Positions 37,904-40,493 of a DNA stretch of 40,493 bases are shown here, in pieces. Within the stretch, counting starts at the first letter, position 1. The number at the start of each line of letters is the position of its first letter. The stretch covers positions 1-40,493 of the forward strand of contig SDNY01000018.1 in NCBI GenBank assembly GCA_004524535.1, in the 5' to 3' direction. Below the pieces are notes generated by a model. It was not told the DNA's origin, made no database searches, and was given only the letters and a program-made list of their open reading frames with translations. Source of the DNA: Promethearchaeota archaeon. Its GTDB lineage: Archaea > Asgardarchaeota > Lokiarchaeia > Sigyniarchaeales > SOKP01. Both the position numbers and the translations under genes were made by a program.

Positions 37904-39589
37904 TTATGAAAGAACCGTAGTAGGAGGTTGCAGGTTTTTAAATAATCCAAGTAAGTACATAATTTCTTCTGAGCCATTAATGATTCTCTTTATATGATAA
38001 GGAAAGCTTTCAAATCTAACTTTCTTTCCTTCATTAACCCAATCAATTATCAACTTAACCATTTCTTTATATTTATTGATGGTATTCCCTTCAGAATCTA
38101 TTTCATCCATGATTTTCCATGCTTTCCCTAATTTACCATTGAGAATAAGGGATAAAGAAGCTAATACGTAAGAATGGACTATGTGTGAGTAGCCGATTTT
38201 TTTTAAATTTGCGGCTCTATAATAATATCTATACACAGATCTAACCATTTGCCTTAAAAAAATATCTTGTGCGATATCTAATTGCTCGTAAAATTTTAAA
38301 CTCTCTAAAATAAGTGTTGCTGAGGTGTAAAATTGTTTATTTTTCACTTCTTTTTTTGCAATTTTACTCAATCCTCGGATAATTTGATTAAATATTCCAT
38401 ATCGGTTAAATTCAAGGTTTCCTTCAACTGCTATGTCGTATGCATTTAAAAAACATTCAGTCGATTGATTTAAATCCCCGATTTTCCAAAAGTTATGTCC
38501 TGCTTTTACTAAATGCTTATAAGCCATTTCAAAATTATTTAAATCCTTAAAAATATTTGCCGCATTAATAAAATTCTCTGCCGCTTCGGAATAATCTTCA
38601 ACCTTTTCAATATAATTTCCCGCTAAAACAAAACACGAAGCGGATTCAATTAGATTATTATTGATCTCTTTATAACATAATCCTGCTCCTCGGTAATAAC
38701 TGGCAATTTTTTGAAAATTCTGTGTATTTTTTTCTAAGCTTTCTGCTAAATTGATATATGCACCTGCTTCTCTTTTAGTGTAATTAAGATATTGATCTTT
38801 ATCATCCAGTTGATTATAGAGATTTTTTAATATCTGACATATTTGAGCTAACCCCAAATTTATATTCATTTCTTCAAATTCATGAAATAAATTTGAGAAA
38901 AAATCTATTCCATCCAAAATAATATTTTTAGATTGGTTATAACTGTCTAATTCCTCATAACAGAGGGCAAGTTGTTGATAGGAAAAGGATAAAATATCGT
39001 AATAATTATAAGTTTTTGCGAATTCAATTGCTTTTTCGTAAGTTTTAATGGCTTTTTTAAAATCAGACGATTTTACGTATAATTCCGCTATATTTTGATA
39101 ATTTTGAGTCATTTTTCTAGTTCCAAAGTTACTTGTATCGTTAAAATCGTTCAAAAGTTTGTTTTCTTGGTTCAAATACTCGATACTTTTTACTATATTG
39201 TCCTTTTGTGATTTGCCGTCTTGAAATTTTTCCTCATAAATATCAGCGATTTTTAAATAAATCTCAGCAATTTCGTGTAGTTTAGCTTGAATGATGAAAT
39301 TCTCAATTAATTTTTCCCATAATTTAATATTATGCTTATATAATTCAAGAGCGAAAGAATAATCAAGATCCTCTAATATTTCGGCTGCTGAATTTATAAA
39401 CTCTCCTGCTTCCCAAATATCTCCTGCTTCAGCAAGTTTGTTCGAAAATTTAACTGAGATTTTAACAAGCTGTTGAAGTAAATTCTTCTTTTTGTTTTTA
39501 TCACTGATTTTTTTTATATTTCTAACGTAATCTCTTAGACGCTCTAAAAAATCTATGTAATCACTGTAATCCTCTTCTTCCTCAAGAAT
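37904..39589 (-). CDS. TPR / alpha-SNAP-like helical repeat protein; proposed ATT start at 39589 (track start 39175)
   Basis: Frame is open from 39601 to 37904; repeats such as ESASCFVLAGNYIEKVEDYSEAAENFINAANIFK. Confidence 0.7.
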   Translation of the reverse strand: MLEEEEDYSDYIDFLERLRDYVRNIKKISDKNKKKNLLQQLVKISVKFSNKLAEAGDIWEAGEFINSAAEILEDLDYSFALELYKHNIKLWEKLIENFIIQAKLHEIAEIYLKIADIYEEKFQDGKSQKDNIVKSIEYLNQENKLLNDFNDTSNFGTRKMTQNYQNIAELYVKSSDFKKAIKTYEKAIEFAKTYNYYDILSFSYQQLALCYEELDSYNQSKNIILDGIDFFSNLFHEFEEMNINLGLAQICQILKNLYNQLDDKDQYLNYTKREAGAYINLAESLEKNTQNFQKIASYYRGAGLCYKEINNNLIESASCFVLAGNYIEKVEDYSEAAENFINAANIFKDLNNFEMAYKHLVKAGHNFWKIGDLNQSTECFLNAYDIAVEGNLEFNRYGIFNQIIRGLSKIAKKEVKNKQFYTSATLILESLKFYEQLDIAQDIFLRQMVRSVYRYYYRAANLKKIGYSHIVHSYVLASLSLILNGKLGKAWKIMDEIDSEGNTINKYKEMVKLIIDWVNEGKKVRFESFPYHIKRIINGSEEIMYLLGLFKNLQPPTTVLS

Positions 39590-39859
39590 CTTAAGATCAA
39601 CTCATTAAAACTAAGTAAAGATCACATATTGAAATTAATTGAAAAATAAAAAGAAATGGTTTTTCAGAATTAGTTTTAACCTCTTAAAAACAACGAGAAT
39701 GGAATTCCGAAAGAATTATCTATTTCACATTAATATATATGCTGCCAACTTATAATTCTAAACAATAACTATAAAATATTGTGATGTAATTAATTATTTA
39801 AATGAAAATTATCATATAATAAATATATAAATTACATTACTAAGGATGGTATAAAAAGA

Positions 39860-40102
39860 ATGAAACAAGTAAGTGAGCTTTTAGAGACAGGAATATACGA
39901 GACGTTTACCGCTGAAAAAACAATGACTGTTAAAGATCTTCTAAAAGAATTGAATTTAGAAGGAAAATACTTCGGGATCCTCATTAATGGGAAGAAGGCA
40001 ACCGAAGATCAAAAAATAACAGCGGAAGATGAAATCGTCATACTTCCTCACAGCTAATTTTACTTAAAAATTGGCGTGGAAATAGCGGGTGGCGATTTCT
40101 AG
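39860..40102 (+). CDS. ubiquitin-like MoaD/ThiS/SAMP protein, split: exon 1 39860-40051, exon 2 40082-40102 (70 aa spliced)
   Basis: TVKDLLKELNL...ILING.......I..EDEIVILPH beta-grasp pattern; the missing IAGG lies in frame 30 nt downstream. Confidence 0.85.
40052..40081 (+). other. candidate bulge-helix-bulge (tRNA-type) intron in mRNA
   Basis: 9-bp hairpin 40053-61/40067-75; bulges ACA 40050-52 and AAA 40080-82; central CCUC/GUGG; exon-exon stem 40031-41/40089-99; in-frame TAA inside. Confidence 0.75.
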
Positions 40103-40115
40103 AGAATAAAAATAA

Positions 40116-40124
40116 TTTTTTTTT
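40116..40124 (+). terminator. oligo-T terminator downstream of exon 2
   Basis: T9 run 13 nt after the TAG at 40102. Confidence 0.5.
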
Positions 40125-40308
40125 CTCTTATTTTTAATTTATAGAGTTTACGATATAATTTCAATTTTAATGTTATCCTTATTAGATCCTTAAGTAATAT
40201 TTTCTTCACTTTTAAATTAAAATTTAAGCTTTATTCTAGTTAAATTTATAATAAGCAAAGAATTCATTAAAAAATGAATTTAAATGATAAATGGAGCTTG
40301 AATAGATC

Positions 40309-40493
40309 ATGGAAATATTTAATGAAATGGAAGAAAGATTTGTTGAAATTAATGGAATAAAACTTCACACTGTTATAATTGGTTCAGGAGAACCTTTAAT
40401 GCTATTACATGGCTTTCCTGACTTTTGGTATGGATGGAGAGATATAATTCTCGGACTAAAGGACAAATATAGATTAATAGTTCCAGATATGCG
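40309..40493 (+). CDS. alpha/beta hydrolase (epoxide hydrolase-like), 5' part only
   Basis: MEIFNEMEERFVEINGIKLHTVIIGSGEPLMLLHGFPDFWYGWR...PDMR; HGFP motif; runs off the window end. Confidence 0.88.
   Translation, partial: MEIFNEMEERFVEINGIKLHTVIIGSGEPLMLLHGFPDFWYGWRDIILGLKDKYRLIVPDM

Follow-up and report, generated by a model that had tools for sequence, protein, structure and literature searches.

The window analysed here is a 40,493-nucleotide (nt) stretch of contig SDNY01000018.1 from a Promethearchaeota archaeon of the class Lokiarchaeia, whose genome we call G000. Near its 3′ end lies a small gene for a ThiS/MoaD-family protein, in which a 30-nt insert separates most of the coding sequence from the codons for the C-terminal Gly-Gly (Table 1). 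As it stands in the DNA, the open reading frame (ORF; 39860–40057, + strand) encodes 65 amino acids (aa) ending in ILPHS and then meets TAA, and codons for IAGGDF followed by TAG lie in frame with it at 40082–40102. The original prediction, made from the letters of the sequence, had pointed to just this arrangement, and the ILPHS end, the downstream IAGGDF with its stop and the TAA-containing 30 nt between them are all present. In Pfam the ORF matches ThiS (PF02597) above the family threshold (30.7 bits against a cut-off of 22.5, E 4.7e-7), and since the match of the unspliced ORF ends at position 71 of the 76 in the profile, the C-terminal end is missing from it. The Gly-Gly (IAGG at 40082–40093, followed by Asp-Phe) is found in the spliced reading only and the unspliced ORF is without it, while ThiS, MoaD and SAMP proteins need a C-terminal Gly-Gly for activation and conjugation. 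The ORF stays below the Pfam threshold for SAMP2 (PF21965, 25.0 bits against 27), so we refer to the gene as SAMP-like and not as SAMP2. Its earlier description as a ubiquitin-like gene is right in the sense of a ThiS/MoaD-family (SAMP-like) beta-grasp gene but does not extend to ubiquitin proper. From its family membership, the protein would serve as a sulfur carrier, a modifier or both, and its Asp-Phe tail would probably be removed. The gene exists as a single copy in G000. Comparison of exon 1 with the nearest intron-less relatives gives 19 synonymous and 4 non-synonymous codon differences, so the gene has stayed under selection. The T run past the stop is a possible archaeal terminator, and similar T runs are also found 3′ of the stop in orthologous loci.

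Table 1. Features of the ThiS-like locus (window coordinates) and of five further candidate inserts in G000 (contig coordinates); bp, base pairs; MFE, minimum free energy.
Feature	Coordinates	Strand	Basis and details
Exon 1 of the ThiS/MoaD-family SAMP-like gene, 64 codons, Met to His	39860–40051	+	ORF list, Pfam
Outer exon-exon helix, 40031–40041 with 40089–40099, 11 bp, window-specific, encloses the whole motif	40031–40099	+	MFE fold
Central 4-bp helix, 5′ strand, exon CCUC, partner 40076–40079	40046–40049	+	Three C-G pairs and a U.U
5′ bulge ACA, predicted cut after 40051	40050–40052	+	Geometry of 10.64898/2026.10.13.758758, section 4.8
Predicted bulge-helix-bulge mini-intron, 30 nt, in-frame stop TAA at 40055–40057	40052–40081	+	Sequence, covariance model
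Inner helix h′, 40053–40061 with 40067–40075, 9 bp, loop ACUUA at 40062–40066	40053–40075	+	Fold
Central helix, 3′ strand, intron GUGG	40076–40079	+	Pairs with exon CCUC
3′ bulge AAA, predicted cut after 40081	40080–40082	+	Geometry
Exon 2, Ile-Ala-Gly-Gly-Asp-Phe, then stop TAG	40082–40102	+	Sequence
Run of nine T, 3′ of the stop	40116–40124	+	Sequence
Candidate insert in cdhD, 30 nt	C8 3057–3086	-	Profile 7–135, then 138–227; frame 167 aa vs 397–406 in relatives
Candidate insert in MoxR-type AAA_3 ATPase, 29 nt	C26 5940–5968	-	Profile 1–88, then 89–131; frame 184 aa vs 276–340
Candidate insert in Elp3, 31 nt	C98 11116–11146	-	ELP3_N, then Radical_SAM 73–158; frame 154 aa vs 491–571
Candidate insert in CODH/prismane, 30 nt	C100 12004–12033	-	Exon 2 = profile 128–485; frame 82 aa vs 786–819
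Candidate insert in DeoC aldolase, 32 nt	C16 3517–3548	+	Exon 1 = profile 32–220 of 229; frame 228 aa vs 261–268

The insert and its flanks can be folded into a bulge-helix-bulge, in which two 3-nt bulges frame a short helix between exon and insert. All the pairings that had been proposed are there, including the inner stem, the central helix with its bulges and the 11-bp helix between the exons, the last of which is also part of the MFE fold. The 9-bp stem includes one G-U among its pairs, and the central helix CCUC/GUGG consists in the window of three C-G pairs and a U.U at 40048/40077. Helix h, beside the bulge, has no contiguous pair here; a flanking helix is expected to have at least two contiguous pairs, and these are supplied by h′. 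The segment 40020–40110 folds with -24.8 kcal/mol (z = -3.2), and 2 of 200 shuffled sequences were as stable. A covariance model built from nine inserts (R1) identifies the window's copy at 40039–40095 with 60.7 bits (E 1.2e-13), and a search against Rfam gives nothing at gathering scores over the whole window and nothing in 39200–40300 at E up to 1. In either bulge, the archaeal splicing endonuclease EndA cleaves 3′ to the second base. Cuts made in this way in the window (Table 1) join CAC to ATA.

Is this insert peculiar to one gene copy? A script sorted 110 orthologous loci (30 from 60 related genomes and 80 from metagenomes) into 98 that are uninterrupted, ten, the window included, with an insert directly after the His codon, one cut by a contig end and one left unparsed. 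Two loci tried as further inserts, L130 and L131, are both uninterrupted on inspection. With R1 we searched 150 genomes of the class and obtained matches in eight, namely G000 and seven of the 50 genomes of a genus labelled g11, one per genome, so that no second copy of the intron was found in this set. When the homolog P0091 was used as a protein query, an ortholog was detected in 122 of 160 genomes of the class, and the same eight genomes read through an insert. Altogether 17 loci, 14 of them distinct, are intron-bearing, all at the same codon boundary, after His and before Ile-Ala-Gly-Gly, and the ThiS-like gene itself is kept in 121 of the 133 other genomes of the family. An alignment of orthologs had been put forward as a check of the original prediction, and it comes out in favour: LPHIAGG is contiguous in 98 loci, and variable inserts with a covarying bulge-helix-bulge are found in 16 others.

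A separate view of the family comes from protein sequences. A protein search gave 341 homologs, of which 120 were listed, and 37 were fetched, these being the top matches and those of odd length or coverage. Among the fetched proteins 29 end in LPHIAGG plus 0–5 residues and seven stop 0–5 residues past LPH (P0014, P0045, P0051, P0057, P0066, P0068 and P0086). One more, P0091, has a stop-free in-frame insert of ten residues between LPH and IAGG; a search of all 160 class genomes gave no DNA locus for it. The ninth inserted residue of P0091 is Ala (GCN) and, judging from the codons alone, if the intron plan holds there the central helix would be CCGC/GCGG, a further compensatory variant. At source the homologs are named MoaD/ThiS family protein and are assigned to Lokiarchaeota, Promethearchaeota, Thorarchaeota or Hodarchaeota bins, and the orthologs carry PF02597.

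A tree built from 113 rows of the 195-nt exon is weakly resolved, with 41 of its 102 inner branches open, so that the number of gains and losses is only bounded: parsimony gives 11 changes of intron state, and at least four are forced by well-supported branches. The window sits within a supported group of nine rows, the other eight of which are intron-less, and its intron may share a common origin with those of g11 or may be a separate gain at the same site. In one bin (G079) the gene occurs on two contigs, C140 and C603, once with and once without the intron, which could reflect a strain mixture or two alleles.

The 17 inserts vary in sequence but have a common plan. On the 5′ side, exon CCYC is followed by the bulge AYA, whose second base precedes the junction, by a stem arm of 9–11 nt and by a 5-nt loop; on the 3′ side come a 9-nt stem arm, GRGG (in the window GUGG), the bulge ANA, here too with its second base ahead of the junction, and then the Ile-Ala-Gly-Gly codons. 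The inserts are 30 nt long in 14 loci and 32 nt in three. Both bulges, AYA and ANA, are present in 17 of 17 loci, and cuts at the second bulge base produce the His|Ile junction in every one of them, so the earlier remark that the cut rule and the protein motif give the same junction now applies to the window and to 16 further loci (13 further distinct sequences). The central helix has all four pairs in 16 of the loci and three of four in the window. Outside the window its intron strand is GAGG or GGGG, matching exon CCUC or CCCC respectively, and among the 14 distinct sequences the third central pair is C-G in eight, U-A in four, U-G in one and unpaired in one, which is the window.

Changes on both sides of a pair are seen in eight of the nine stem pairs and in one of the four central pairs, or in 9 of 18 pairs overall. 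RNAalifold recovers the motif unguided from a plain MAFFT alignment (A2), and in that alignment 93.2% of the cells are paired, as compared to 80.1% after shuffling (none of 500 shuffles reach the observed value) and 43–56% when the partners are slid by 1–3 columns. The observed covariation score was likewise matched by none of 500 shuffles, and in the alignment of the 17 loci (14 distinct) 94.4% of cells are paired. The outer pairing in the other loci is formed by AUCCU with AGGAU (alignment columns 2–6 with 56–60), with 92.9% of cells paired. According to the definitions in section 4.8 of a preprint on Asgard transfer RNA (tRNA) introns, as given in the available part of its text (10.64898/2026.10.13.758758), 16 of the 17 motifs belong to the class HBh′, three of them qualifying as full hBHBh′; a helix h of three pairs is found only in L051, L080 and L121.

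Several features of these loci indicate that the insert has to leave the message. The 32-nt inserts, found in 3 of the 17 loci, put the IAGG codons out of frame, so that only excision restores them. Exon 2 nevertheless encodes Ile-Ala-Gly-Gly and a stop in all 17 loci, with codons that vary only synonymously. The Pro codon, part of the central helix, is CCY in all 14 distinct intron-bearing loci vs 45 of 90 intron-less ones, and the Ile codon with a partner in the outer helix is ATC in 13 of 14 vs 29 of 90, comparisons in which related sequences are not independent and p-values are thereby overstated.

The end of the protein also differs between the two kinds of gene. Nine of the 14 distinct intron-bearing genes (L031, L046, L051, L056, L063 and others) end exactly at Gly-Gly and the stop, and 83 of the 90 intron-less genes have one extra residue past Gly-Gly. 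The Gly-Gly-stop codons of intron-bearing genes contribute GGAGGAU to a helix with AUCCU from the Ile-Leu codons, and through this pairing the RNA fold may shape the end of the protein.

We therefore arrive at the following reading, to which we assign a probability of about 0.8: positions 40052–40081 are predicted to be a bulge-helix-bulge (HBh′-class) mini-intron in the single-copy coding sequence of a ThiS/MoaD-family, SAMP-like protein. The sequence, the recurrence at one site, the covariation, the selection on both exons and the enzyme genes are observed, and from them cleavage, ligation and removal of the short tail past Gly-Gly appear probable. In the pre-messenger RNA (pre-mRNA), exon CCUC would pair with GUGG of the intron, leaving a 3-nt bulge on each side, and the 9-bp hairpin of the intron would stack on this helix. 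A two-subunit splicing endonuclease would then cut after 40051 and 40081, and RtcB would join the exons. The spliced message would be translated into a 70-aa protein ending in Ile-Ala-Gly-Gly-Asp-Phe, and the unspliced one into a 65-aa protein without Gly-Gly. The proposal that an mRNA is spliced here by machinery of the tRNA type, the central point of the original prediction, thus receives comparative support from the compensatory changes, the frame-shifting 32-nt inserts, the synonymous variation of exon 2, the EndA and RtcB genes and five other genes described below.

The enzymes for such a reaction are encoded in G000. The EndA family (PF01974) matches at two loci with 107.9 and 70.7 bits, corresponding to paralogs of 201 aa each on contigs C100 and C84, and there is one RtcB (PF01139, 561 bits). 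We take the C100 EndA to have the catalytic Tyr/His/Lys pattern and the C84 EndA to be without the His. By their sequences, the pair would fit a catalytic subunit together with a structural one. Asgard archaea have an (alpha-beta)2 EndA with an L1 insert, and broad-specificity (alpha-beta)2 enzymes cut relaxed motifs, according to the available part of the text of Kaneta 2018 (PMC5829648). In G000, which is rated 99% complete, aragorn finds 12 tRNA genes, eight of them intron-bearing, and the Rfam tRNA model finds 15. This low count is in line with the part of the tRNA-intron preprint available to us, according to which the majority of tRNA genes in some Asgard archaea are interrupted and escape annotators (10.64898/2026.10.13.758758).

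Turning to the surroundings of the gene, a SNAP-like TPR protein (PF14938) is encoded divergently upstream at 37904–39175 (- strand), and the same neighbour is found in L031, a genus-g11-like locus (586–2121, - strand), so that it is a conserved neighbour. No E1, E2 or JAMM gene adjoins the ThiS-like gene in the neighbourhoods of the window and of L031. The intergenic segment 39654–39842, upstream of the gene, is covered by a 190-nt contig from an RNA-labelled library (run X2), which has seven other letters and one gap. This segment is 79–94% alike in three syntenic loci of the same genus and has no Rfam match; it may represent a leader or a small RNA, or else DNA carried over into the library.

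What speaks against a functional intron in the window? Among the 17 copies, a central-helix mismatch occurs in the window alone, and due to this U.U the motif is 'relaxed' by the section 4.8 definitions, a class that is often a chance product, as far as the available text of the preprint goes (10.64898/2026.10.13.758758). The caveat of a relaxed motif, voiced already in the original prediction, is therefore justified; such a motif in one sequence is weak evidence alone and the case rests on the comparative data. The MFE fold favours another register, UCAC/GUGG (40048–40051 with 40076–40079), with a 1-nt bulge, which competes with the bulge-helix-bulge, the helix beside the 3′ bulge is weak (a mismatch, then two pairs) and the R1 score is the second lowest among the 17. 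One of the alignments (A4) was fitted to the covariance model and leans towards the structure, with A2 giving the same result. The six genomes of the same genus with a readable ortholog are all without the insert, and no close intron-bearing relative of the window's copy with DNA was found among the loci collected. Contigs from the two RNA-labelled runs, which represent small shares of the stretch (0.07 and 0.04), cover 39654–39842 and 40334–40493 only, and none covers 39843–40333. Some of these points, namely the three of four central pairs seen in the window alone, the register favoured by the MFE fold and the low model score of 60.7 bits, could also mean that the insert family is real and the window's copy has decayed, with the U.U and the competing register blocking cleavage and only the 65-aa protein being made, either inactive or in the process of being lost. 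We consider such decay unlikely, since the window has an intact exon 2 with its stop and a perfect inner stem of 9 bp, exon 1 differs from relatives at 19 synonymous and 4 non-synonymous codons, the gene is single-copy and widely kept (121 of 133 other genomes of the family), and the broad-specificity (alpha-beta)2 enzymes tolerate relaxed motifs, at least as described in the accessible text (PMC5829648).

The other alternatives leave the insert in the RNA or remove it from the genome altogether. Translational bypassing needs matching take-off and landing codons. A ribosome skipping the insert in the manner of T4 gene 60, or passing it by stop-codon read-through or a frameshift, would be in keeping with the stop codon lying within a hairpin just past the last sense codons, which resembles the gene 60 arrangement, and with the ten-residue stop-free insert of P0091. 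However, none of the 14 distinct loci has the His codon CAY ahead of the 3′ junction, where GAA, GAG or GAC is found instead, so that a ribosomal hop is unlikely, and with no matching landing codon we reject bypassing; the 32-nt inserts would need a frameshift too, and the covarying 4-bp helix between exon and intron and the exact placement of the 3-nt bulges would be left unexplained by bypassing and read-through alike. Altogether we regard this family of explanations as very improbable. Hardly more credible is that the short LPHS protein is the working product, with the IAGG codons as a leftover and the hairpin as a terminator or stability element. Gene callers do give short forms, as in the seven of 37 fetched proteins that end just past LPH, and a T run follows less than 20 nt past exon 2, but Ile-Ala-Gly-Gly and the stop are kept in 17 of 17 loci with synonymous variation, the family is known to need its C-terminal Gly-Gly, and a terminator hairpin needs no helix that covaries with the Pro-His codons. 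An assembly or sequencing error in this metagenome-assembled genome can practically be dismissed, as inserts of the same structure occupy the same site in 16 loci of other assemblies and an artefact would carry no fold complementary to the flanking exon.

We scanned G000 for similar candidates, using a motif with four of four central pairs, 3-nt bulges, an inner helix of at least 6 bp and an insert of 20–130 nt, and retaining cases where excision fuses two open frames, the first at least 60 codons long and the second at least 30. The scan yielded 34,623 motif matches, of which 449 passed the frame filter, and 11 were picked by eye for Pfam analysis. Five of the 11 are backed by Pfam together with the length of the open frame in relatives (Table 1): the borders of these five inserts are those predicted from the motif scan, and the Pfam profile positions continue across the gap in the split genes. 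Five other picks are merely neighbouring genes (PTH2 and TruD on C164, two VWA genes on C165, and candidates on C77, C48 and C90), and a pick on C190 has no Pfam match. The scan is a lower bound, as it missed the ThiS intron itself, which has six downstream codons and three of four central pairs. Most of the same-genus relatives searched have undivided frames for the five genes, and this absence points to recent gains in the window's lineage, as far as can be judged by comparing frames. Short frames as in G000 were noticed for a homolog of CODH/prismane exon 1 (G007, contig C220, 6030–6239, 89 aa) and for a DeoC homolog (G005, contig C1, 320560–321210, 225 aa); these may be further inserts or contig ends. 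It is tempting, though speculative, to think that the lineage holds recently expanding bulge-helix-bulge mini-introns of about 30 nt which colonise protein genes (at least six in G000), that its tRNA-splicing machinery routinely matures mRNAs, and that removal of the ThiS intron is a gated Gly-Gly step, a counterpart of HAC1/XBP1; we hold this broader picture as a tentative possibility.

If the reading is correct, gene callers report a truncated protein at such loci, as for the seven of 37 fetched homologs that are cut at the site, and an Asgard archaeon needs splicing of the tRNA type to make a ubiquitin-like modifier, cdhD and CODH/prismane of the acetyl-CoA pathway, and Elp3. Because intron-bearing and intron-less alleles occur in close relatives, gain and loss of introns in protein genes could be studied directly, and in organisms that belong to the nearest prokaryotic relatives of eukaryotes. 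The position of the intron just before the activating Gly-Gly would also make a splicing-dependent switch testable.

How does the ThiS intron relate to systems already known? The small intron of HAC1/XBP1 lies near the 3′ end of the coding sequence, is cut at stem-loops without the spliceosome and is sealed by a tRNA ligase (RtcB in animals), giving the protein a new C-terminus; the part of RtcB in HAC1 splicing is reportedly the subject of work by Tanaka from 2011. The likeness is in the mode of action, with a non-spliceosomal intron at the 3′ end and a changed C-terminus, but the cuts there are made by the Ire1 endonuclease under stress regulation, and the window's intron stands outside that system. 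Closer in mechanism is the leader intron of HVO_1309 in Haloferax volcanii, a bulge-helix-bulge in the 5′ untranslated region (UTR), which also makes an mRNA the substrate of the splicing endonuclease and was demonstrated by sequencing of circular RNA (circRNA-seq) and in vitro (Schwarz 2020, PMC7714728). In that case, by the portion of the paper available, no coding sequence is interrupted and the host is a euryarchaeon with a different enzyme type. Its authors point out that short circles are under-represented by circRNA-seq. The same portion of text names cbf5 as the only reported mRNA bulge-helix-bulge intron besides the authors' own 5′-UTR case (PMC7714728).

With the Asgard tRNA introns the window's insert shares the definition of the motif (a 4-bp central helix, 3-nt bulges and flanking helices), the (alpha-beta)2 EndA with its L1 insert and a history of repeated gains, as described in the available parts of two sources (10.64898/2026.10.13.758758; PMC5829648). 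It differs from them in that the host RNA is an mRNA and excision restores a reading frame; the word mRNA has no occurrence in the text of the tRNA-intron preprint (10.64898/2026.10.13.758758). In the open literature searched, cbf5 of Crenarchaeota is the single coding-sequence case of an archaeal mRNA intron cut by the tRNA enzyme, and we found no intron of this kind described for an Asgard archaeon or for any ThiS/SAMP gene.

Nearest to the window's insert is the intron in the pre-mRNA of crenarchaeal cbf5, which is said to have been described by Watanabe in 2002 and by Yoshinari in 2006. From the accessible text on the cbf5 intron (Yokobori 2009, PMC2738675), both are short introns of a coding sequence with a bulge-helix-bulge-like EndA substrate (predicted in our case), in a host with a two-subunit endonuclease, and both have a patchy distribution with lineage-specific loss or gain. 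The window's intron differs in belonging to the Asgard phylum and to a ThiS/SAMP-like gene, in lying six codons before the stop, where it withholds the Gly-Gly tail, and in having at least five more such inserts in the same genome, and whereas cbf5 splicing has been demonstrated experimentally, that of the window's intron is predicted. In mechanism the intron belongs with the known pre-mRNA introns of the cbf5 type, but both its lineage and its gene are new, and it sits where it withholds the functional C-terminus.

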